A DNA stretch of 64,000 nt from Diadema antillarum (GCF_040938485.1 NW_027271016.1:1780436-1844435), one strand, 5' to 3'; shown: positions 15,661 through 53,489, counted from the first letter of the stretch. The notes: generated from the sequence alone by a model not told the origin. Numbers and translations are program-made.

Positions 15661-16822
15661 AAGGTTGCAAAGGAGACCCGCTTCATGTGCATGCATACAG
15701 TATACACGCATTTTTTTTCCGCCTCCCAAATCCCCGGTCCAAATCTTGGGGGGGGGGGGGGGGGGGGGGGCGACCGCCCCCATCGCCCCCTGGCTACGCC
15801 AGTGACGAAACGCAGGTCTGTATGTATGTAGTTGTTTTTGTCGCTGTTGCTATTATTTAAAGGTCGACGTCAGTACGCAAAATGCCATGCAGGAGAAGTT
15901 TATTATTATTATTATCATTTTTAATCGATAGATGACAGCAAATGTGACTAATCCACGCCAATCGCTGATCCAACAAGGACTGACGCCAAGACGTTGTGGG
16001 TTGCTCCGCTTCTGTGCAGAATCGCGATTGCGCTATTGTCCTCTACATGTACACCGCTCACAAAGCCCAATTCAGCAAAATTTGAGAGTGAAATCAGTAA
16101 GAACTCGCTTTGCACAGGCCATATACTTAGTAATCAGCAAACACTGAACGATTCTCTCCCTGCCTTTCATCGAGACATTGCATATTCCATAGAAGACTTT
16201 GATGAAAATCAATTCAATTCATTTATTTTCATACTTCTCATTTATGAATATTACATCAGAAATAATACTACAAGTTCTTTTACCTTGTCAACAATGTGCA
16301 AAAAACAACCAATATACATGGTAATAACACAGCAATTGTAATGATAACTGGTCGAAATCGAAATTGGGTTGAACAAAGATAAGTATGTCGGGACCTACAT
16401 GAAAGCAAGCTTGTTTGGCTGTAAGCTCAAAGTAATCAGCGTTTGTGAAAAAGAAACGGAGAACGGATAGAAGATTAGACCAGGCGATTAATAGTACCAA
16501 ATAAGAGAAGCGGGGTATGCCTATATGTGATTCAAAAAAAAAATAATAATAATAAAAAAACCACCAAACCAACTAGTATACTAACAATGTGAACCGTTAT
16601 AGTGACCGAGCTGTCATTCGTTTTCCGGAGTAGAACATAGGGCCTACTTTGGTATACACTTAACTAAACTGTTGGGGCATTAAAACTATCACAAAGTTAT
16701 ATTTAGTAAAACCAAGGAGGTACTAGGCAAAGCCTAGTACCTCCTTGGTAAAACACAGAGAGTGACGTGTACAGTTATTCAGCCATTTGTTGCCTGGCAT
16801 AAGCTCCTCAATAAATCAATTT

Positions 16823-22090: not shown

Positions 22091-22330
22091 TCACGACTCC
22101 TGGAGGACCCTTTTTTGGTAGCCAGACCGGCAGACGGGGCAGATCTTGTGCTCGCCCAGGGACAGCTCCTCGAAGGCCTGCAGGCAGCACAGGTGGAAGA
22201 CGTGTGTGCAGGAGAGGAGGACCGTCTTGCGCTGCCCACGCCTGGGAGAATCTACCTCCTCGTTGCCCTCAGCGATGTTTCCTAGCGACATGATGCAGAT
22301 GGGACAATCCTTCTCTCCTCTCTCTACCGC
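22091..22330 (-). CDS. RNF32: RNF32-like terminal exon: AVERGEKDCPICIMSLGNIAEGNEEVDSPRRGQRKTVLLSCTHVFHLCCLQAFEELSLGEHKICPVCRSGYQKRVLQES* (complete RING-H2 finger 2)
   Basis: Acceptor ccccatgcag|, 80 codons ending in TGA at 22091-22093. C-x2-C...C-x-H-x2-H-x2-C...C-x2-C spacing is a textbook RING-H2. Confidence 0.7.
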   Translation of the reverse strand, partial: AVERGEKDCPICIMSLGNIAEGNEEVDSPRRGQRKTVLLSCTHVFHLCCLQAFEELSLGEHKICPVCRSGYQKRVLQES

Positions 22331-24227
22331 CTGCATGGGGAAAAAAAAATTTAACATCGAAATCAACTGAGACTGAGTACAGCTCCTTTCAAGTTGAGAA
22401 GGTGACTGGCGATGTTTAAAGGGAAATTCCAGACCACTTAAAGGTGTGTCTGAAAAGAATGAGTAAAATGTGGCAGGCACAAAAGCGAAAATTTGATAAA
22501 AAATGGATCAAAAGCAAGGGAGTTAAGAAATTTCAAAGATTTGCTTATTTTTGTATTACGGTTCTCAAACAGTTGATCTGAATATGTAATGAGTGAGCTT
22601 ATGATGTTATCATCTCACAATATTCCATTAATTGTGTACCAAAAAATGGCACAAATTCAATTTTTCTGGTTTTTAAGTATAGAATATGTTACTCCTGATT
22701 GAATAACTTCAAAGAAAACATCAGTCAGATATATGGGCATAACTGTGTTTGATGAAAAGCCTGGAAATTTCATGAGTTTATGTACATACCGTGTGGAAAA
22801 TTGTGAGAGGATGACATCATCCACTCACTATTTGCATATTCATATTGACCGTTCCAGAACTGTTTTGTAAAAATTAGTGAAATTTCTCAATTCTTAATTT
22901 TGACATCACAAGCTGTTGTAGTCTTCTCATCTAGCAGTGACTGAGAAGAAACTTCAAAAATTCACAACTTTTGAATGGATTGTCTGATTTTTCCCAAACT
23001 TTCATTGTGTTCTACTAATATTGCTGCATTCACTCAATCTACATGTCTATGAAGGTGGACTTGTCCTTCAATGTCCGAGAAATTTGTACATCACAGTATC
23101 ATACCAGATAACCACTGAATTTACATCCTAACTTGTGATTGAAAGAATAGGGAGACAAGATCTTGGCTTTAACACTCAAAATATGCAATTTGAGTGTCAA
23201 AGCCTCTCAAAAGGTGTTACACTATCAACATCAGATGATGACCAATTCACCTTGAGCATGTTCTTGTTTTTTTTTCCTGCCTCCCAAAAATGGCACAATT
23301 TACATTTTGCCCTATGTTTACTTCCCCTCCTCCCCCTGTAATTTAATGAAAAAGTGAAAAAGGAAAAAGAGAGAGGGAAAAAAAATGGTTTGCAAGCAGA
23401 TGCCCCCGCCTGGCAGAGTTCCGGTGGGAGGAGGAGGAGGAGGGACGGATGGAGGAAGTGATGGAGGAGGGTGAACGACAAGGTCACGGGAGGTCATCCT
23501 CCTTCCAAGAAGCCGCATTGGCTTGAAGGGGGGGGGGGGGGGGGGAGGGGGAGGGGGGAGGGGGATGTCATCTGAAAGATGCAGACTACTGCCTCCACTT
23601 TGATAAGAGGCGATTGGGGTCGTGAGGGGGAGACAGATGGGTAACAGGAAGAGGAAATGGCTTGCACATGCACGGCTTGGTTTGTCCTTGCCTAAAAAGC
23701 AAACGCTAGGCATCTGTTGTTGTTGTTGTGTTTTTTTTGGTGTTTTTTTGACAGGTCTAAAATTACTGCATGTGCAAATGCTTATTGAATGTGACAGCTG
23801 AAGTGACACACATGGTAGGATGGACGCAACATTTCCATTTGCTACATTTAAACCAAAATGCACGTACATCAGAGGATGATATCTCATCTCTAAATATAGA
23901 GCCCACATAGCTTTGGATGAAGCAGGGGCGGATCCAGGAATTTCGTAAAAGGGAGGCGCCTTTGCAAAATTTAAGGGGGGTGCACGCACCCCCCATTTTT
24001 TTCTTTTTATTTCTTTTAATCAAAAATAAAGAGGGGGCACGCACCCGGTGCGCTCCCCTCTGGATCTGCCACTGTGAAAGCATGAATTTCTGCCCATCGA
24101 CGGCCTCGCAGTGCACTCACTCACATTCATTTTGCTACAAGTTTCGTCATCTATCATGACAGCCAGCACAAAAATGTTCCCTAATCTCAAACAGATATTT
24201 CCAGTACTAGTATATTATATGTGCATA

Positions 24228-24476
24228 TCGTCGCTGGGGCGACAAGACCTCGTATCTACGTAATGTCAAATGTTCAGGAGAGCCAAAAAACATGGCGGCC
24301 AAAGCACTGTGGCGAATGGGATAGCTTTTCCTTTGACATGCCATGGTGGCTTCATTTTTGGAGTAAGACAGTTGGGATTTGGACAGGACATCACTTAACC
24401 CATTATTTGACCATTAATCCGAAAAAGTCATTTTCACCAAAATTGCAGATACAAGGTCTTGTCACCCCAGCGACGA
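24228..24476 (+). mobile_element. 249-bp MITE, copy 1 (33-bp TIR TCGTCGCTGGGGCGACAAGACCTCGTATCT, TA flanks)
   Basis: Terminal inverted repeats are seen directly, with TA at both ends. ORF 24221-24481 falls inside it and is spurious. Confidence 0.6.
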
Positions 24477-24523
24477 TATAGATGTATGTATCTACATACA
24501 TACATATACATACATACATATAC

Positions 24524-25412
24524 AGTCAAACCTGTCTTAGCGGCCACCTCTCTATAGCGGCCACCTGCTTATAACGGCTACTGAAAATCCCCCGAACGCA
24601 ATTGCTGTATTATAGACCCTTTATATAGCGGCCACCTGCCAACGCGGCCAGCGGCCACTCATTTTGTTTCCCGTGGTGAATATCAACCTGCCTATAGTGG
24701 TCACAAAAACTGAGTTGATCCATTAAATCAGCAATGAGTACAATGTCTTTTACGTTCATTGCGTGATGTCTACCGAGTCCTAGCTCAGTCACAATCACAC
24801 AGACATGATTGACAAAATTAATGCAGCTCTTTGCCACGAAAACCCGTCTTACCGCAAACTTGACTAGATTAGATCTAGGCTTCAGAAAAGCAGCCCTGAA
24901 TAGCTGCTACAAAGGCAAAGAGAACTCCTAATAACAACTTAGACTGTTACCGAAATGCAGACTAATTAGTGTTAATCCCTTTGAGTAAGGACAACATGGT
25001 ACCTGTCTGGGTATTGTTTCTATAGTTTACGTAAATTTTACACCTTTTTAATCCTCCATCGAACTCAGCTCTCGTGAACCCCGTTCATGCAAACCGGTAG
25101 GGATGAACCACAGCACTGCTCAGGCCCGAAATATTATTTTTAACATCAAAAGAATAGAAGGAGGCAATGAGAAAAAAAAATGAAGTGAATTGTACAACGA
25201 AAATCCCCATAATAGCAGAGCTGCTGCATATGCAAACTTAAATGTTGTTGTTGTTGTTTTTTTTAAAGAATAACATGCGGTATTTTCGGCTATCATAAAA
25301 TGCAAGTAATGAAATTCAAAATGGCCGCCGACCTGTCTATAACGGCCACCTGTCTATAGCGGCCACTTTTGTTGTTTCCCTTGGGTGGCCGCTATAGACA
25401 GGTTTGACTGTA
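24524..25412. mobile_element. About 0.9-kb TIR element (TIR TATACAGTCAAACCTGTCT[A/T]TAGCGGCCAC..) lying between the two inverted MITE copies
   Basis: 24524-24600 is the reverse complement of 25330-25412. Its right terminus abuts MITE copy 2 through a shared TA. (CATA)n microsatellites lie at 24481-24523 and 25806-25895. Confidence 0.5.
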
Positions 25413-25420
25413 TACACATA

Positions 25421-25669
25421 TCGTTGCTGGGGTGATAAGACCTTGTATCTGCAATTTTGGTGAAAATGACTTTTTTGGATTATTGGTCAAATAATGTGTT
25501 AAGTGATGTCCTGTCCAAATCCCAACTGTCTTACTCCAAAAATGAAGCCACCACGGCATGCCAAAGGAAAGGCTATCCCATTCGCCACAGTGCTTTGGCC
25601 GCCATGTTTTTTGGCTCTCCTTAACATTGGACATTTTGTAGATACGAGGTCTTATCGCCCTAGCGACGA
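25421..25669 (-). mobile_element. 249-bp MITE, copy 2 (same family, inverted orientation, about 90 percent identical)
   Basis: Reverse complement of copy 1. ORF 25392-25676 is nearly the same peptide as ORF 24221-24481. TA flanks. Confidence 0.6.
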
Positions 25670-25857
25670 TATACAATAGAAAGGGATTGGCCTGAAATGA
25701 AAGGAAACATAATGACCATTTTTTAGTCAGGCTACCAACAGATAACCTTTTAGAACATTTGGTGCCCCAACATAAACTTTTAGTGGTCCAAAGTCACAGC
25801 TAATGTCGAGCCCTGCTTTCACGCATACATACATACATTCATGCATACATACATACA

Positions 25858-25891
<34 letters not shown>

Positions 25892-26267
25892 CATGTACAG
25901 GTACATACAGTCAACCTTGCCTAAGTCAAATCTATTTGGACTGAAGAAGTAGCTTTGATGTAGAGAAAATTTTACTTAAGAGGGATTAAAATCAATAGCA
26001 TATAAGAGAGGACTTGCGAGGTCGACTTTAATAAGCAAGGTTGACGGCAGGTACATATATATATACCCAAATACATACATGCATGCATATATACAACACT
26101 GTACATACATACAATAATCATGCAAACAGTATCAATGCACAGGTAGATGAAATGACAGACAGACAAAAAGAAGGAAAATAAGAACAAATATGACAGCATC
26201 AAACACAAAACAAAACAAAACAAAACAAATCAGCTAATGTATCATACGGACTGAAGACATGATTTAA

Positions 26268-26648
26268 AGGGATAGTACAGTTTTGGTGGAGGTGAGAATT
26301 TGGCTTTTAAATTTTTGCGAGATACCAAGAAAACACTTATGAAATAGTACAGAGCATACCATTTTAAGAGGAATTCAAAGTTTACTTGATGGAAATCGGG
26401 TTTGGAATGACGGAAACATCCAAAAACAAGGTAAAACAAAGCGATCGTGTGAAAGTGTGGGTCCCACACTTTATTAGAATCGCTCTTTTTGGATATCTCA
26501 GCTATTTCAAAACCAATTTTCATCAAATAAACGTTGAATTCCCCATAAAATTACATGCCCTTTCATATTTCATAAGAGGTTTTTCATTATCTCACAAAAA
26601 AATGTTAGAAATCTGAAGTTAGGTCTCAACCGAAACTGTACAATCCCT
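26268..26648. mobile_element. 381-bp foldback MITE, copy 1, TTAA target duplication (termini AGGGATAGTACAG / CTGTACAATCCCT)
   Basis: The element is self-complementary end to end. TTAA lies immediately on both flanks. It sits in an intron of the RNF32-like gene. Confidence 0.65.
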
Positions 26649-43935: not shown

Positions 43936-44754
43936 ACTGGCTACATTGCTACAGTGCTCCGCAACGGGGTTAAATCAATTCAGAGGGTGGCAGGGCCAGG
44001 GACTAAACTCAAACAAAGTGTAAGAACAGTGAGAACAAAGAAGCTACAGATCTCAGTCTAACGTTAGTGTTTAATGTCTTGCCCTCGCCTTGGTCTTGTA
44101 CACAGTCAATTAAAAATTGCGACAGGCCTATTGTGCACAGGACAAAGAGATTTTTCTCCTTCATAAGCTCTTTGGTACAGGATTAGAACTAGGTAACATT
44201 ACTATGGTCGGAGTCATTACACACATCAAAACTTATTTAAATTTTACCAGCAGCGAACACTACGGATGGGTCTACGCACTTCACGTCTTGTATTTTTCAT
44301 AAAAGTGTAAGGAAAATACTTGCCTTCGTTGGTTTAGAAGTGTTCTGACTATACACAGCTGACCTTTTATGATGTTGAGACCCCATTGTCGACAAAGAAA
44401 AATCAAAGTATAGAGGTAAGACTGCAAAACGTCCGGTGTCAAAGGGCTTTTATCGTCTGTTCATGTTCGGACTTTCCCAGTCCAAATCCATTTGTTGTCA
44501 TTAGCCACCGCATCATCACCCCGTGCATAAAAAGCTTGCTGCAGCTGCAGCGCTACGACGTGCAGCGATGCAACCGTAGTACTACATGTACATCGTTTTA
44601 TGAATTTGCCTCCCTCTATTGGCAAGATAACGGTCATACTGAGTTTTCGATTGTCATAATCCAAAAAATCTGTGAATAAACATAGCCTGCTAAAAATACA
44701 AAATTATAAAAATACACGAAAATACATAAAATACAGAAAAAATACAGAAAATAC

Positions 44755-46325
44755 AGCCGTGGAGATTGCACCAGCAGTGACTTTACTTTTCCAAGCTTCT
44801 ATCAGCCAAGGAAAAGTGCCTTCACAGTGGAAGAAGGCTCAGATCGTTCCATTGTTCAAGAAAGGAAGTCGCTCTGATGCTGCAAACTACAGACCCATTT
44901 CTCTAACATCCGTACTGTGTAAGCTGTGTGAACACATATTTCACTGTGCTGTAATCCGTCACCTGACTGACAACAACATCATTTCGGATGCCCAGCATGG
45001 TTTCCGCAAACTGAGATCGTGCGAAACACAACTCATCTGCATGCTGGATGACCTTGCCAAGGGTTTAGACATGAAGTCACAAATTGATGTGGTCCTTCTC
45101 GATTATGAGAAGGCCTTCGATAAAGTCTCCCATCGACATCTCATGGAGAAGGTCCAGCACTATGGAATCTGTGGTAAAACAGCAGATTGGATATCTGATT
45201 TCCTCCACTCACGCACACAATCTGTTCTTGTTGATGGCCAGGAGAGCAGGGAATCCCCTGTTACATCGGGAGTCCCACAAGGAAGTGTCTTGGGCCCCCT
45301 GCTCTTCCTCATCTTCATCAACGACCTGCCGGACTGCATCTCAAGTTCATCTGTCAGACTATACGCTGATGATAGTGTGGTTTACAGGCACATTTCTTCA
45401 CCTGCTGACTCAACCCGCTTGCAGAGGGACTTAGATGCAGTTCAAGAATGGGAAGCGAAATGGCTGATGCGATTTAATGCTACCAAGTGTCAGGTCTTGC
45501 AGGTCACCAACAAGAGGAATCCCGTTCCTGCCTCCTACACCATTCATGACCATGTACTACAAGTTGTCCGCTCAACCAAATACCTGGGTGTCCATATCGA
45601 TTCAAGATTGAATTTCAACAATCATGTGGATACTGTCACCAAGAAAGCTAATGGTACTCGAGCCTTCTTCTCACGCAACCTACGTCATAGCAGCCAAAAA
45701 GTCAAAGAAGCTGTCTACACAACATTCATCCGACCAACTGTCCAATACGCAGCGACTTCATGGGATCCGCACACACAACGGAACATACACAAGCTTGAGC
45801 AGGTTCAGAGAAGTGCAGCTCGATTTGTCACGGGCGACTTCGAAAGATCTAGCAGCGTCACAGCCATGCTGGATTATCTCAAGTGGCCTCCACTGCAGGA
45901 ACGTCGCTCCCAAAATCGTCTGCTGATGATGTATAAGATCAGACATCACTTGGTTGACATCCATTGGCAGACTTACCTGACCCAGCTCTCAAAATCTACC
46001 AGAGGACACTGTTCCCGATTCACTATCCCCCACACCAATACTACAGCGTATGCCAACTCATTCTTCCCACGCACCATCCGGGACTGGAACAGCCTGTCTG
46101 TTGATCCTGCCACATACCCATCCCTCATCGCCTTCAAAACTGCGCTGAGGGAACTCTGTAGGATGTAACTCTTCATCCAGAGATTTTTACTCGCACCTGT
46201 AAATATTTTTCACCTGATTTCAAATTTCTGTTGCCCCGGTGCGGCGTATGCGCATGTTCTCGCAGTGCGTTCATCCTCGACCATTTGAGGGCAGCACTTT
46301 ATCGGAAGAAGAAGAAGAAGAAAGT
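44755..46325 (+). mobile_element. 5'-truncated non-LTR retrotransposon (CR1/L2-like LINE): RT domain ORF 44672-46168 plus 3' UTR ending in a (GAA)n tail
   Basis: The 498-aa ORF carries NYRPISLTSV, QHGFRKLRSCETQL, LLDYEKAFDKVSH, GVPQGSVLGPLLF and YADD reverse-transcriptase motifs. No ORF1 or endonuclease lies upstream. A microsatellite-like (AAATACAG)n sits at the 5' junction. Confidence 0.85.
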
Positions 46326-48424
46326 CTCAATGTATTTCGTCTTACATATCTAAGTCGACGAACTTATTTCACTCCAGTCCTGAAATTTGAATATGGAGGT
46401 CAATCTCATGATCTGCTCAAATTCCGATCAGAAAGCATTAATGTGGGTTGAGTGAATATAGCAATATCAGTGGAACACAGAGAAAGTTTGAGGGAAATCG
46501 TAAGTCCGTTTAAAGGTTAATTCTTAAGGCAGACATCATTTGATTTGGAGACTACAATTTGTGACGTCACGTGTTAAGAACGATTTAAAGGAAATACAAA
46601 GAAAATTCAACACAATTATTTTCACTTTTATGGCATGATGAAAGAACATTTACCTTACTTTCAGATAGAAGGAGAAATAATATTAACATTAACATTATGT
46701 CGGTAACAAGTCAAGGTAATGTGCACTTTCCGTGGTTCTTGTAGATAAATAAAATGTTAATATTGTTTATATAAATGATGTTCATTTGGAAGTTTTGCTG
46801 AGGGTGATTTGCCCCAGAATAAAATCAGAGCACTGCCATGCTTCTTCGCGATCAACATAATACTCATCTTTACGAGTCTTTATGGGTAAGGCCCCAGTCA
46901 CACAATGCTCTGCGTCCGGTGTTACGTCCAAAAAAGTAATTTTTTCTGCGGATTCCCGCGGATCCCTCGCCGTCCCGTGAAAATTTTGACAAAACTTACG
47001 ACAGAAAAAGCGGGTGATACGGACAGATACGACCAGATGCGGATACTTGCGTCCACTTGCGGATAATCTTACGAATTGAAACGTAATTCGTTCTTTCGAC
47101 TTGCGTTAACTTCCGAATACTTCTGAACACTTGCGGAAAGTTGCGAATATTTACGGAGATTTGCGAATATTTTCGAATAGTTGCGGAGAGTTACAGATTG
47201 GTATGAATAATTGTGGACAATGTGGTTTTCTCGGGAGACCCCTGCTTATTCGGTGTATTAATGTCAGCAAGGTTATCACATTTATGACTGTCTTAGTACA
47301 ATGGGGGAAAACTGAAATTATGTCACGTTCAAGTTGTGGATGAAGACTTTTCGTATTATTTTTTATTTGTTTAATAGCAATAAAAGAAAAATGAAATTTT
47401 GAACTTTTTGAAATTTTGAAAGTTTTTCATTTCAATTGTGCAACTCAAATGTGAATGTGTATCATAAATGATTTTATCTTATTTCATTTCGTTTTATTTC
47501 TGCCTTTTTCACAAAATATTTACACGTAACAAACAATTTTCCAATACTGTAATCATGCTTTATCCAACACAAAATTAATATAAATATCTTCAAGTAAACG
47601 TACCAATATTGAAATATTGTATAAGTGAGTTATAATCATACTTGAATTATTGCGGAAAATCATTGATATTTCAATCGAATTAATGCAAACAAATTGGAGG
47701 AGACCGTCATCTTAAGCTAAAGCTAAGCTAAAGCTTGAATTTGATGACGGTCTCTGGATAAGCATATAGCTTATACTTCATTACAAATCATTTAATACAT
47801 ATTAAAGTGTATAACGGAGTTCCATATCAGGGTACGTACAAATGCATCAGTGCAAAGGTGTTGTAAGGTGAGTTAGGGTACAAGTGCATATGTGCAGTTA
47901 TGTTGTTTGATTATTGAAGTGAAATTTGGTGCTATTCAGAAAAAATGTGTATATCTATTTTCATATAAAAAATAGCATACACAATGTTTATGTATGGATA
48001 TATGTGCGGATACGAGTCATGTAATGTTAAAAGGTGGTGAAAAGAATAAAGTGCATCTTGGTAAATAAGAACTGCGTCCGCACTCTGTGTTTTATCAGAC
48101 ATGGAACCCTTCAGAAATTTAAGATTTCACTTCAAAACTAATTTATGAATTAAAAAGATGTATGACTAAATGCATAGAATACATAACATAATTATACCAC
48201 GAATAAAATACTACATGGATCGATAAGTTAAACAATATAGTAAGAAAATATAGTTTAGAGTCCTAGAATAGACAAATTTTGGTTACGTTGTAATTGTGCA
48301 TGGATATTCATGACTTACTGGATTATGTTACGAAGACTGTTAAAGTAATGCTTGATAAATTTCCAGACAAAAATGGACTTTAGAACACCCCCTCCCCCAC
48401 CCAGATACAATATAAAATATGTAT

Positions 48425-49963
48425 ACGCATTCCATGGAGTGTAGAATGGCTAAGACTACAGAGAAATACTAAATTCGTTCTCATTTTTTTTATATAGCTT
48501 ATCGCTGTCCCACACCTTCGCCAGGCCAAAAAAGTAAATAGAATGCTGTCACTCTATCCCCTACCAAAAAAATATTGACCCTTTCGAATAATATACATTC
48601 AAGGTTACAAGGAAAACAAGTTCACCACCCGGGGTCGACCGATGTCATCTGTATATGGGTGTCATCTTAAATTGACCATTTGCGGGGAGAAATTTCATAA
48701 CTCGACCATGCGGTTGTACCACTCCACCGCTCCGACTGTGTTATAGTATTCCTTCAGGTACATGCGCTATAGTGGTTTCCCGGAGTCTCTGCTCCCATGG
48801 GAGTGGAAAACGGAAAACGTCAAAGGACGCAGTTGTCCGCAGCTTTCGTGACTGTCCGCAGATGTCCGTAAGCAGACGTAAGTGTTGTGATACGTTAACT
48901 TGCGGTTAATTTCGGATACTTACGGCGGACGCAAATGAACGCAAATGGACGGGAGGTAAAACATTTTGCGGATGGTCTGCGTCCAAGCTACGGATAGTTA
49001 CGTTCAGTTACGGATAGTTACGTTTAGTTACGGTTACTTGCGTAAGTCTGCATCCGTGGAGTCCCTCTGCGAAATTTTGAACATTTCAAAATTTCGCAGG
49101 CTTGGTGCCGTCATTTTGCGTTTCTTTACGGATTAGTTACGGACAGTTACGTCTACATACGACCCTGCGGATGTCTGCGTCCACGCTGCGTCCCCCTGCG
49201 TCCACTCATCCGTATCTATCCGCAGCGGACGTAACCCATCGTAAGGCATTGTGTGACTGGGGCATTACGTCCGCCGCGAATAGATACGGATGAGTGGACG
49301 CAGGGGGACGCAGCGTGGACGCAGGCATCCGCAGGGACGTATGTAGACGTAGGGTTCTGTCCGTAACTCATCCGTAAAGAAACGCAAAATGACGGCGCCA
49401 AGCCTGCGAAATTTTGAAATTTTGAAAATTTCGCAGAGGGACTCCACGGATGTAAACTTTCGCAAGTTACCGTATCCACCAAACGTAACTATCCGTAACT
49501 GAACGTAACTACCCGTAGCTTGGACGCAGACCATCCGCAAACAATTTTACCTCCCGTCCGTTTGCGTTCGTTTACGTCCACCGTAAGTATCCGAAATTAA
49601 CCGCAAGTTAACGTATCACAACACTTTCGTCCCCTTACGGATATTTGCGGACAGTTACGGATGCTACGGACGATTACGTCCTTCGACGTTTTCCGTTTTC
49701 CACTAGCATGGGAACACAGAGACTCGTGGGAAGCCACACAACTCATGTTGCGAAGCTGCAGCGCATTTACCTGAAGGAATGCTACAACACAGTCGGAGCG
49801 GTGGAGAGGCAGAACCGTATGGTCAAATTATGAAATTTCTCCCACAATTGGTCATTTTAGGTGGCACCCATATGTGGGACAGCGATGAACTATATAAAAT
49901 GAGAACAAATTAAGTATTTCTCTATAGTCTTACCCACTTTACGCTCCATGGAATGTGTATTGC

Positions 49964-50015
<52 letters not shown>

Positions 50016-50075
50016 ATGCAATACACATTCCATGGAGCGTAAAGTGGGTAAGACTATAGAGAAATACTTTGCCCA
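48425..50075. repeat. Large near-perfect palindrome (arms about 800 bp, centre about 49250) inside the 5.9-kb element; centre carries a terminus-like motif GCATTGTGTGACTGGGG
   Basis: I compared the reverse complement of 48425-49232 with 49267-50075 segment by segment. They align throughout with scattered mismatches. The right arm ends in a second perfect palindrome centred on (TA)n. Confidence 0.75.
49905..50075. repeat. About 170-bp palindrome centred on (TA)22 (cruciform-capable)
   Basis: 49905-49965 is the reverse complement of 50012-50075 (CATTCCATGGAGCGTAAAGTGGGTAAGACTATAGAGAAATACTT), flanking (TA)n at 49967-50011. A third copy of the arm lies at 48425-48480. Confidence 0.8.
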
Positions 50076-50268
50076 TGAAATTTTGCCTATGATCAGACAT
50101 GTTTTCATGTCTGTTTCAGAAACGGGTTTGATTAAGATCTTTTGTCACACCATAGGCATGAAGAGTGTGACCTTGCCTTTCAGTTTTTGAGAGCTAAGCT
50201 CCGTTTTTAAGATCTTCAAGATCTATGATATATTTTTTACGGCGTTCTTCTTCTACCAATTCTTTTAC

Positions 50269-50279
50269 TTATATCTATA

Positions 50280-50334
<55 letters not shown>
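50269..50334. repeat. (TA)n of about 30 units inside the 5.9-kb element
   Basis: Seen directly. Confidence 0.95.
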
Positions 50335-50341
<7 letters not shown>

Positions 50342-50909
50342 GGGTGTGGGAGGGGTGTTTGAAAGTCTTGATGTCTTTTTTTTTCTGGAAATTTAATAAG
50401 CATTGCTTTATTACCAAAATCTCCTTAACATAACCCAATAAGTCATGAATATCGCTACACAACGTCAGCGTAACCACAGTTTGTCTATTCCATGACTGTA
50501 AGTAATATTTTCTTACTCTAATGTTTAACTTATCGATCTATATTGTATTTTATTTGTGGTATAGTTATGTTATGTATTCTTTACATTTATGACGTTTATT
50601 AAGTTGCACAAATATAATTTAAACTTCAAGTTCAAAATTTCATATATCTTTTATTACTGTAAAGCAAATTAAAGGATTACGAAGTTTTTTCACAACTTGT
50701 ACGTAATTCAATTTCAGTTTTCCCCAGTGTATACAATGTAAGACAGTCCAATATGTGATAACCTTGCTGTCATAATACACTGACTTAGCAGGGATCGTCA
50801 TAGAAAACCATATCGTCCATAATTATTTATAACAATCTGTAACTATCCGTAACTATCCGAAAATATCCGCAACTCTCCGCAAGGGTTCAGAACTATTATG
50901 TGCCAATTC

Positions 50910-52576
50910 CAGTGGCGTATCTAGGGAAAACGGCGCCTGGGGCAAGCGCGAAAATTGCGCCCCTAATTTCTGAAAAAGACTATTGTTCAACCCCAACCCC
51001 ATCCCGGTAGGGACTTTAAGCAAAGTGCACATGATATGCTTTTCAAGCCCTTAAAAGGGGTCTTTTGAGGGTGATTTAAATGTAATGAATTTTGATAAAT
51101 TTTGGCGAGCGAGCGCAGCGAGCGAGCCGAAAATTTGTGTATTTCAGCTGACAAAACATGGAATTCTAGTCATTTTTTGCTTATCAAATCTTACAATTCT
51201 AATCAAGATAGTGACGGCCTTATAGATAACGATTTATCTATACCAACAAACTGAGTACTTTAAAAAATATTCTAAATCAGAGGGGCATTTCATGAAGCAT
51301 TTTGTCCGACAACTTGTCGGACAAAATTTGCTTTCAGCCAATCAGAAGCAAGGATTTCAGTAGCTTTTAACAGTTTGTCAGACGAAATATCTGACAAATT
51401 GCTTCATGAAATGCCCCCCCCCCCCCCCCATGTACGCGCGAGTGAGCCGAAATTTGTATATTTCCGCGTCATCATCACGTTTTGTTCTTATCTCCTTTTT
51501 GTTTTGATAAATTTTGGCGAGCGAGCGCAGCGAGCCAGCCGAAAATTTTTGTATTACAGCTTACAAAACCTGGAACTCTTGTCATTTTTTGCTTATCAAA
51601 TCTTACAATTCTAATCAAGATATAGTGACGGCCTTATAGATAACGATTTTTACCAACAAACTAAGGAATTGAAGAAATACTCTGAATTAGTACGAGCGAG
51701 TGAGCCGAAATTTGTATATTTCCGCGTCATCATCATCACGTTTTGTTCTTATCTCCTTTTTGTTTTGATAAATTTTTGCGAGCGAGCGCAGTGAGCGAGC
51801 CGAAAATTTTTGTATTTCAGCTTACAAAACATGGAACTCTTGTCATTTTTTGCTTTTCAAATCTTACAATTCTAATCAAGATATAGTAACGGCTTTATAG
51901 ATAACGATTTTTACCAACAAACTGAGGGTTTGAAGAAATACTCTAAATTAGTACGAGCGAGTGAGCCGAAATTTGTATATTTCCACGTCATCATTACGTT
52001 TTGTTCTTATCTTGTTTGATTTTTTTTTTGGCGCCCCCCCTCCCCCCCCCCCCGTATGTTCGAAACCGTTGGCGCCTTCTTTTGATCCAATTGGCGATCG
52101 CTTCAGAACGAAAGAAATTGCAGCCGCTGCTCAGTGAAACATTTTGCCTACTAAATATAAAATGACACGTGTGAACACAATAGACATTGTCATTTTGTCC
52201 GATTCATCATCACATTTTGTTCTTACCTTCTTCTTCTATATAAAATTTAGAGAGCGAGCGCAGCGAGCGAGCCGAAAATTGTATTTCAGCTTACATAACA
52301 TGGAATTCTTGTGTGAACACAATAAACATTGTCATTTTGTCCGAGTCATCGTTATGTTTTGTTTTTATCTTTTTTTGATTTGGTTTTCTGCCCCCCCCCC
52401 CCGCACATTCTTCCTCCCCCCCCCTTCCGGTGAGTTTCTTCTTCTTCTTCTTTTCTTTTTTCGTTTTTTTTTCTTCGTTTTTTTTTTCTTCTTCTTCGTT
52501 TTTTTTTTGCGCCCCCAAGGAGTGGCGCCCGGGGCACGTGCCCCCCTTGCCCCCCCCCCCCCTAGATACGCCACTG
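50910..52576. mobile_element. Nested non-autonomous hAT-like element inserted into the right TIR of the 5.9-kb element; perfect 17-bp TIR CAGTGGCGTATCTAGGG with an 8-bp TSD GCCAATTC
   Basis: GCCAATTC occurs at 50902-50909 and 52577-52584, immediately flanking perfect inverted termini. An 8-bp TSD with CAG termini is typical of hAT. The interior holds about 3.5 tandem copies of a 270-bp unit (GCGAGCGAGCGCAGCGAGCGAGCC motif) and long poly-C/(CTT)n tracts. Confidence 0.55.
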
Positions 52577-53489
52577 GCCAATTCGTAAGAATATCCGCAA
52601 GTGGACGCAAGTATTCGCATCTGGTCATATTTGTCCGTATCGCCCGCATTTTTTCCCCGTATGTTTTGTCCAAATTTTCTGGTGACGGCAAAGGATCCGC
52701 GGGAGTCCGCAGAAAAAAATTACTTTTTTGGAAGTAACGCCGGACGCAGAGCATTATGTGACTGGGGCCTTAAGTTCCACTACAATAAGTTATCGCCTTA
52801 GCTAGAGCTTCTTTACTATACACTTCAGTTCAATGATCGAGTGCACATTTCTTAATTTCCATTACTCAACAATCATTTTGATATATACGCTACACAATCA
52901 TCTCTGTTTGCAAACGTCAATGTGTTTTAGACACAACTGAATTTTAGCGCCGTTCACGATCACGTGCACCGTTGATCTTGTCTGCTGTCATCGGGGAGTG
53001 ATGATTTTCAAGTCGCTTGTCCATGTCTTTCTAACACTAATATCCCCCACAGCCCCTTTTTCTTTGTTTTCTTTCTTAGCATCACCTGTGTACATGACCG
53101 TGTATGTTTTTTTGTGTAACTGTTTTGTTGTGTAAAACTAGTTTGTTTTTGTTGTAGTTAAGTAAGCCGATAGTTCATTGAAACTGTTTATTCATTTATT
53201 TATTTGTGCATGAGGCCCCAATATTAAGCTCGGCTTACTGGGGATCCTCCTACATGGTACCTTGACATTTTTATTATCATTATGTCTCCGTTCTTTGTCA
53301 CAATGATTATTTTACTTACCTGTCATGTGCAAAATCAGCCATGACTTTATTTTGAACCATGTGTTTATTTCTGAAAGTGATCAGAGGTGATTATATCATT
53401 TTACCATACAGAAACAATATGAAATGAAATGAAATGAAATATTTAAGGCACTTTCTGGCCTTCTGTTTGATACCCTTTCGATATTATAA

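Follow-up and report, generated by a model that had tools for sequence, protein, structure and literature searches.

How does a transposon terminus come to lie at the centre of a long inverted repeat, and is such a palindrome a genuine part of the genome? The question is raised by a locus in the window, the whole stretch of 64,000 nt of DNA analysed here. A preliminary description had placed an inverted repeat with arms of about 800 bp at 48425-50075, had read its centre as two abutting element ends and had warned of an assembly artefact. With a probability of about 0.6, the larger region 46887-52772 is a decayed tail-to-tail inverted pair, consisting of two copies of one non-autonomous cut-and-paste DNA transposon family. 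The window has a GC content of 38% and contains microsatellites. An exon of an amiloride-sensitive sodium channel (ASC; top identity of 65% in a protein search), a LINE-type reverse transcriptase and a RING-finger open reading frame (ORF) identify the host as an animal, and the window is animal nuclear, non-prokaryotic DNA. The element pair is placed in intergenic DNA, the locus lying about 2.5 kb upstream of the ASC exon. Rfam families were not matched anywhere in the window at gathering thresholds.

Table 1. Features of the inverted element pair and of its surroundings, with positions in the window.
Feature	Position	Strand	Basis or remark
LINE-type reverse-transcriptase ORF	44672-46168		RVT_1, E = 5e-37
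TAA triplet by the outer left terminus, candidate PIF/Harbinger TWA target-site copy	46887-46889		inverted-repeat match stops here
Inverted block	46887-47078 vs 52772-52579		88.7% identity
Left unit, complete non-autonomous element with both termini, 2375 bp	46890-49264	+	ends match; no Pfam match, no ORF >91 aa
Left terminal inverted repeat, 19 bp, GGCCCCAGTCACACAATGC; common to left unit and composite	46890-46908	+	exact 17-mer; aligns to mPing repeat
Left subterminal array, 10-bp phased CG-rich motifs (TTGCGGA / TTACGGA type)	47017-47221	+	repeat family; TRF period 10 at 47109-47185
Inverted block	47151-47406 vs 50882-50628		79% identity
Left-arm-only segment bounded by direct repeat TAAATG	47471-48160		single copy in window
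Inverted block	48167-48425 vs 50589-50318		78% identity
Left-arm-only segment, 138 bp, inter-arm indel	48515-48652		no counterpart in right arm
Inner left arm, right-end subterminal region of left unit with 10-bp motif arrays	48653-49234	+	90.5% to reverse complement of 49265-49872
Asymmetric loop, 30 nt, final 30 bp of left unit	49235-49264		sequence; arm ends set by alignment
Right terminal inverted repeat of left unit (reverse complement TGCCCCAGTCACACAATGC), then TTA 49265-49267	49246-49264	-	17-mer match
Right unit, inverted copy of the left unit's element minus its last 30 bp, later broken by insertions	49265-52769	-	colinear blocks mirror left unit
Small perfect palindrome, 56-bp arms 49912-49967 / 50014-50069, 46-nt spacer with (TA)22	49912-50069		sequence
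Right-arm-only stretch	49968-50317		(TA)22, inverted 56-bp copy, unique filler 50070-50269 (200 bp), (TA)33
Nested hAT-type non-autonomous element	50910-52576		perfect 17-bp terminal repeats CAGTGGCGTATCTAGGG; 8-bp target duplication GCCAATTC
Outer right terminal inverted repeat (reverse complement GGCCCCAGTCACATAATGC)	52751-52769	-	pairs with left end
TTA triplet by the outer right terminus	52770-52772		sequence
Amiloride-sensitive sodium channel exon	55233-55682		ASC, E = 4.5e-23

Self-BLAST of the window confirmed the large inverted repeat far above chance, the main match scoring 1390 bits. This match pairs 48653-49873 with its own reverse complement (84.8% over 1257 columns); a second one pairs 48423-48514 with 49960-49873 (84.8%). 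Block identities come from alignments made block by block with the BLAST matches as anchors; when the arms were aligned globally in one MAFFT run, the block 48167-48425 was misplaced. The inner arms are 90.5% identical, and 48410-48514 and 49873-49973 are 88% identical. The corrected arms of the palindrome comprise 48410-49234 and 49265-49973, reverse complements at 88-90%. They do not align along their whole length, as had been claimed, for the 138 bp at 48515-48652 are unpartnered. The last part of the right arm as first drawn, 49974-50075, consists of the spacer and second arm of the small palindrome and does not mirror the start of the left arm. The asymmetric centre measures 30 nt instead of 35 bp. 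Within the inner arm, identity climbs from 86.6% to 94.8% toward the centre. Folding of 48786-49720 as single-stranded DNA yields a single hairpin of -490 kcal/mol (z = -60.7 against shuffled sequences).

The palindrome so defined is the core of a longer structure, the inverted repeat running from 46887 to 52772. Colinear inverted blocks over this region comprise 1418 aligned nt with 87.0% identity (K2P 0.144). Similarity ends precisely between TAA and GGCCCC on the left (46887) and between GGGGCC and TTA on the right (52772), and the outer flanks are unrelated. Several indels of 50-700 bp distinguish the arms.

Three like termini occur in this region. The 17-mer at the centre, GCATTGTGTGACTGGGG (49246-49262), is the exact reverse complement of 46892-46908 and differs in one nucleotide from 52751-52767. 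The likeness of the centre to the outer right end, on which the first reading was built, thus holds with this one difference, the exact match being to the outer left end. Counting all three, the 17-mer occurs with 0, 0 and 1 mismatches, compared with 0.17 chance matches expected in the window at up to 3 mismatches. The central terminus is genuine and no chance look-alike: including the TAA/TTA flank, the match extends over 22 nt with one mismatch, and the box GTTACGTCC is found about 12 nt inward. Such a box accompanies each terminus, in the form GTTACTTCC at the outer right end. Common to the three termini is TAA-(G/T)GCCCCAGTCACA(C/T)AATGC. Since the three termini are alike, 46890-49264 represents a complete element, bounded on the left and on the right by a terminus of its own. 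The ends of this element share 79% identity over 43 nt; further in, the likeness is confined to the level of motifs. Six-frame translations of the element interior gave no match in Pfam, and the longest ORF does not exceed 91 aa. The lack of a coding remnant marks the element as non-autonomous.

Below both ends, a 10-bp unit TT(A/G)CGGA-NNN is arrayed, with motif spacings on one strand of mostly 10, 20 and 30 nt. Tandem Repeats Finder (TRF) reported a period of 10 at 47109-47185, 48995-49036, 49175-49205, 49294-49325, 49484-49517 and 50830-50879. The ratio of observed to expected CpG is 1.4-1.65 in the motif arrays versus 0.74 in the whole window. The arrays are presumed to be binding sites of the mobilising proteins.

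The right unit mirrors the left unit in the blocks 49265-49973, 50318-50589, 50590-50894 and 52579-52772. It opens at TTACGTCC (49265), 30 bp inside its own right terminus, and the left unit ends complete at 49264; hence the centre holds one terminus only, and not the two abutting ends proposed before. The junction joins one intact end to a truncated inverted copy. It reads ...GGGGCA-TTA-CGTCC, with a mirror TAA at 49232-49234. Alternatively, a former junction of two ends that had lost 33 bp between two TTA triplets would result in the identical sequence. In the palindrome reported initially, the subterminal regions of two right ends face each other, and the loop between them is the sole right terminus to have survived.

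The nested element has the 8-bp target duplication (50902-50909 and 52577-52584) and the CAG...CTG termini of hAT elements; it contains 261-bp tandem repeats and poly-C tracts. The left arm retains the empty site, uninterrupted, as GAATTGAA near 47071, so the hAT insertion postdates the homology of the arms. The left-arm segment 47471-48160 was inserted there and duplicated 6 bp, or else it mirrors sequence that the right arm lost in a microhomology deletion. A second palindrome around (TA)22 had been described as perfect with 60-bp arms; it is perfect, its arms measuring 56 bp. Its outer arm is at the same time an 88% direct repeat of 48423-48470. The (TA)33 tract covers 50270-50335 and extends past the right-arm-only stretch, at whose equivalent position the left arm has a decayed AT-rich tract (about 48410-48422). 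As the sequence shows, an AT-rich site of both arms has become (TA)22...(TA)33 in the right arm. The 56-bp inverted copy and the filler lie between the two tracts, a pattern that recalls templated insertion, in inverted orientation, within a fragile (TA)n tract. A separate element with the termini ATACGCATTCCATGG (48423, 49960 and 50021) was rejected, the three copies being colinear parts of the arms plus the local 56-bp inverted duplication.

Elements of the PIF/Harbinger superfamily are delimited by terminal repeats of 14-25 bp and a 3-bp TAA/TTA duplication (PMC2213677; bioRxiv 10.64898/2026.05.26.728016), and their Myb-like partner protein binds terminal or subterminal sequences (bioRxiv 10.64898/2026.05.26.728016). 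The terminal repeat of rice mPing is GGCCAGTCACAATGG with TAA/TTA (PMC2836001). At the present locus, short repeats beginning with GG are found at three termini as the 19-bp GGCCCCAGTCACACAATGC, which aligns with 14 of the 15 mPing positions if two 2-nt gaps are allowed. The plant PIF-type motif G(N)5GTT is approximated only, as G(N)5GTC. All three termini adjoin TAA or TTA; both the left unit and the composite have TAA at their left and TTA at their right end, so that neither pair is an identical direct duplication. A DDE_Tnp_4 transposase and a second ORF of the Myb/SANT/MADF type were absent from the six-frame Pfam search of the interior. From the termini of this one locus, the pair is probably of PIF/Harbinger (Tourist-like) affiliation, the best-supported superfamily. 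A Tc1/mariner-style TA duplication, TA-AGGCCCC...GGGGCCT-TA, is formally possible and readable at all three termini. The terminal repeat is like that of mPing and is not known from Tc1/mariner ends.

Other superfamilies were considered for the main element and rejected. Instead of the 8-bp duplication and the YARNG ends of hAT elements, it has the flanking 8-mers ATGGGTAA and TTAAGTTC and the terminus GGCCCC. The bases adjoining the termini are GTAA, TTAC and TTAA, i.e. the piggyBac target TTAA in one case of three, and the terminus is GGCCCC, not CCC...GGG. Assignment to Foldback or MuDR-Foldback elements, which make a 9-bp target duplication, was discarded on the flanking 9-mers, which are unlike each other (TATGGGTAA vs TTAAGTTCC); with its long arms and their 10-bp subrepeats, the pair resembles these elements in architecture only. 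Searches for further family copies gave no result. When JGI metagenome contigs were scanned for the 18-mer of the terminus, 6 matches came up, all attributable to chance; none has flanking similarity and most have a GC content of 52-66%. No trace of the element was detected in two related contigs, an exact-match query with the neighbouring LINE ORF was negative, and a literature search with the terminus sequence retrieved only unrelated PCR primers.

How the two units were joined is approached through the distribution of differences between them. The two arms differ at 10.2% of sites in terminal and motif blocks and at 17.7% in internal blocks (Fisher p = 9e-5); in the motif blocks, 75% of CpG dinucleotides are conserved versus 67% of dinucleotides overall. 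Uneven divergence and CpG retention fit past constraint on cis-acting sequences in separate mobile copies better than uniform neutral decay. The uneven divergence could otherwise stem from gene conversion close to the centre, since identity rises toward the loop, or be caused by the AT-rich interior aligning less well. Given this unevenness, the arms may predate their joining, and their divergence provides no date for the palindrome. An alignment of one arm against the reverse complement of the other had been recommended in order to obtain identity and age; it yielded the identity (88-90% for the palindrome, 87.0% for the whole structure), and dating by arm divergence is unsafe with divergence uneven along the arms.

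Excision of PIF/Harbinger elements has been proposed to proceed by a staggered cut at the target-site duplication, with 3-nt overhangs serving as microhomology (PMC4561436). In the proposed course of events, a transposase and a DNA-binding partner, supplied in trans, would have bound the subterminal arrays while the family was active. Two family members, already diverged, would then have been brought together. One copy may have been inserted at a TWA site within or beside the other, or the transposase may have made a staggered break at the right end of the left unit, the ends being rejoined through the 3-nt TTA overhang. The right copy may have lost its 30-bp tip at this joining; alternatively, the composite may later have been moved by its two outer left ends. 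Afterwards, as the sequence shows, a hAT-type element entered the right arm. The (TA)n microsatellite of this arm expanded and apparently gained a templated inverted insertion, giving the perfect 56-bp palindrome, and more indels accumulated. A simple nested insertion of the left unit into the right one was rejected: the 30-bp tip is absent left of 46887 and, under a sister-chromatid model, right of 52772. Local alignment of the missing tip in both flanks under three scoring schemes gave nothing better than random window segments (p = 0.09-0.58). The absence of the recipient tip makes plain nested insertion insufficient, and composite mobilisation or a deletion is needed besides. Taken together, the two-copy routes are considered somewhat favoured.

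A single copy may instead have been duplicated in inverted orientation by fold-back, the palindrome being mobilised later by its outer left ends and then decaying neutrally. Two routes are conceivable. After a break at the right end, e.g. a transposase cut, the 3' strand ...GGGGCATTA would snap onto the TAA located 30 nt upstream and prime synthesis, or a hairpin-capped element end would be replicated and the centre would then lose 33 bp between the two TTA triplets. Several features of the locus agree with such an origin. The arms are colinear over the whole element including its non-functional interior, the junction falls exactly at the terminus and TTA, and the mirror TAA 30 nt back offers a 3-nt microhomology. 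Identity grows toward the centre as in palindromes homogenised by conversion, and the outer flanks TAA and TTA mirror each other, by which the palindrome gains 3 nt. For yeast, fold-back priming from short microhomologies at DNA breaks has been reported (PMC11724301). However, neutral decay after one duplication predicts neither the divergence of 10% versus 18% nor the conservation of CpG in the motifs. The palindrome halts exactly at the element ends, which requires a further transposition step anyway. Fold-back of a single copy, the two routes counted jointly, is therefore regarded as rather unlikely.

More far-reaching readings of the same junction take the palindrome for a fossil of transposon-end chemistry, in which a hairpin or snap-back at a PIF/Harbinger right end was replicated to a tail-to-tail dimer and stabilised by the loss of 33 bp between TTA triplets, or for the founder of an amplified 'foldback-Harbinger' family with a third, internal terminus. 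They are highly improbable. Similarly improbable is the proposal that the 5.9 kb as a whole represent the regular state of a long-inverted-repeat family of the Foldback or Galileo type, the central terminus having no special history. It is true that the arms extend over the entire element and include short tandem subrepeats; in Galileo, copies of just two long inverted repeats exist and secondary insertions can enter both arms (PMC4168063). Against this proposal, the exact 17-mer terminus at the centre, with its TWA flank and conserved subterminal box, exceeds chance, a 7-9 bp target duplication is absent at the flanks, and the left unit by itself displays every feature of a complete short-repeat element.

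That the large palindrome arose in assembly, for instance from a chimeric fold-back read, is extremely unlikely. Palindromes and (TA)n tracts are prone to assembly errors, yet fold-back artefacts give near-identical arms, and the large arms differ at 13% of aligned sites and by indels of 50-700 bp; moreover, the hAT insertion and its 8-bp duplication are confined to one arm. Divergence, indels and the one-sided insertion together settle the earlier concern for the large palindrome, which is no artefact. The concern persists for the palindrome around (TA)22, which may be an assembly error because its arms are perfect, as expected from a recent event and from an artefact alike. Equally remote is a selected function as a source of hairpin or small RNA or as a regulatory cruciform upstream of the ASC channel gene: the hairpin potential is very strong and the ASC exon is about 2.5 kb from the locus, but Rfam gave no match, the arms are decaying and interrupted by insertions, and transposon anatomy accounts for every feature.

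Among known systems, Tourist-like PIF/Harbinger elements (rice mPing/Pong, Medicago MtPH) resemble the inverted pair in their anatomy: a short repeat starts with GGCC, TAA or TTA stands by every terminus, subterminal arrays are opposed at the two ends, and internal (TA)n and composite or nested copies occur. The PIF/Harbinger elements of Medicago offer precedents, having been described as composite and nested, with subterminal repeats arrayed in inverted orientation and with (TA)n tracts in their interior. Differences from mPing/Pong and MtPH concern the animal host, the unit length of 2.4 kb instead of less than 500 bp, the 10-bp CG-rich unit of the motif, and the flanking triplets, which are TAA and TTA instead of an identical pair.

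A classical inverted dimer is maize double-Ds, in which one Ds element is inserted in reversed orientation inside another. Inverted dimers of this type can undergo alternative transposition and cause breakage. Double-Ds likewise consists of two opposed copies of one non-autonomous element, forming a composite with extra internal termini. It belongs to the hAT superfamily, unlike the PIF/Harbinger-like pair, and both recipient halves flank the inserted copy there, whereas the 30-bp recipient tip is absent here. Recipient parts with a target duplication on each side were thus not found, the tip being undetected in either flank.

Drosophila FB and Galileo elements share arms that make up approximately the whole element, short tandem subrepeats, dynamic extension and more conserved ends. 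For Galileo, a member of the P superfamily, better conservation of the ends than of the interior and dynamic arms have been reported (PMC4168063). The present pair lacks the 7-9 bp duplication, and in contrast to FB and Galileo a complete short-repeat element forms one arm, with a terminus at the centre. DNA breaks can give rise to fold-back inversions and to insertions templated in inverted orientation (PMC11724301). These display a short asymmetric spacer and junction microhomology, which fits the TTA at 49265 and the (TA)22 palindrome with its filler. Such events usually measure tens of bp, compared with 56 bp for the small palindrome and more than 2 kb, bounded by transposon ends, for the large one.

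The locus is a previously unannotated case within described categories, i.e. ordinary transposon debris, and its wider weight is small; nothing about it is unusual for genomes rich in DNA transposons. The pair is inert today; all that it could plausibly still do is passive, by extruding a cruciform or folding into a hairpin and, were it transcribed, by giving rise to double-stranded RNA. Fragility or a tendency to recombine is conceivable for the locus, as is a role as double-stranded RNA source, and in principle its internal terminus might once have served alternative transposition. If the palindrome were a fossil of end chemistry or the founder of a 'foldback-Harbinger' family, it would offer natural evidence on end cutting in the poorly understood PIF/Harbinger superfamily; in the latter case, the internal terminus would be able to drive alternative transposition and chromosome rearrangement. 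As it stands, the pair makes a clear case study of kilobase palindromes arising in animal genomes from inverted copies of transposons. It illustrates that such palindromes need not be assembly errors and that the divergence of their arms is not directly readable as the age of the duplication.

The right arm of the palindromic structure, probably a decayed inverted pair of non-autonomous transposon copies, harbors a nested non-autonomous element of the hAT type. Its 17-bp repeats are perfect (CAGTGGCGTATCTAGGG), and the 8-bp duplication reads GCCAATTC. The element contains a 261-bp tandem repeat, present in 2.2 copies at 51432-52012 and in further partial copies, as well as several poly-C stretches, each 12-16 nt long. 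The 17-bp repeat recurs at 15788-15804 in a diverged form with three mismatches. In the segment confined to the left arm, a 13-bp inverted repeat encloses the short tandem repeat (TAAGCTAAAGC)2.

Two other units with inverted repeats are located in the window. The 1.45-kb unit starts with T(G)CATATCGTCGCTGGGGCGA and is probably another non-autonomous DNA transposon. The arms of the second, longer unit are both partly palindromic in themselves and start with TTTAAAGGGA(T/C)(A/T)GTACAGTT. This unit may represent a TTAA-targeting element. The repeat found in two inverted copies, with partial copies also at 27648-27897 and 62352-62461, is a dispersed family unrelated to the palindromic structure.

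Coding sequences were identified on both sides of the palindromic structure. The frame with the reverse-transcriptase domain, about 700 bp upstream, is a fragment of a LINE-type retrotransposon. An exact-sequence look-up in public assemblies revealed no protein identical to it. The sodium channel exon is situated about 2.5 kb downstream and shares only 50-65% identity with its best public relatives. The RING-H2 reading frame probably represents a host-gene exon.

Further features located in the window
Feature	Position	Strand	Characteristics
RING-H2 zinc-finger ORF	22091-22480	-	zf-RING_2, E = 1e-6
498-aa ORF, reverse-transcriptase domain	44672-46168	+	RVT_1, E = 5e-37
Exon, N-terminal part of amiloride-sensitive sodium channel	55233-55682	+	ASC/DEG/ENaC family, E = 4.5e-23
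1.45-kb unit between 258-bp inverted repeats	24222-25675		24222-24479 vs 25675-25418, 94% identity
Inverted repeats of ~400 bp	26255-28362		26255-26652 vs 28362-27961, 78% identity
13-bp perfect inverted repeat, left-arm-only segment	47695-47757		GGAGACCGTCATC ... GATGACGGTCTC
hAT-type non-autonomous element, nested in right arm	50910-52576		17-bp repeats, 8-bp duplication
Repeat in two inverted copies	40098-40623 and 63153-63879		separated by 23 kb, 88.6% over 412 bp
Tandem array, ~270-bp units	13737-14548		three copies, 88-89% identical
Long (TA)n-type microsatellites	7776-7860, 11400-11467, 50270-50335 (right arm), 61734-61848		recurrent

Since the right-arm (TA)n tract is associated with a perfect 56-bp palindrome, the analysis suggests that rearrangement or assembly error has local hot spots at the (TA)n tracts in the window.
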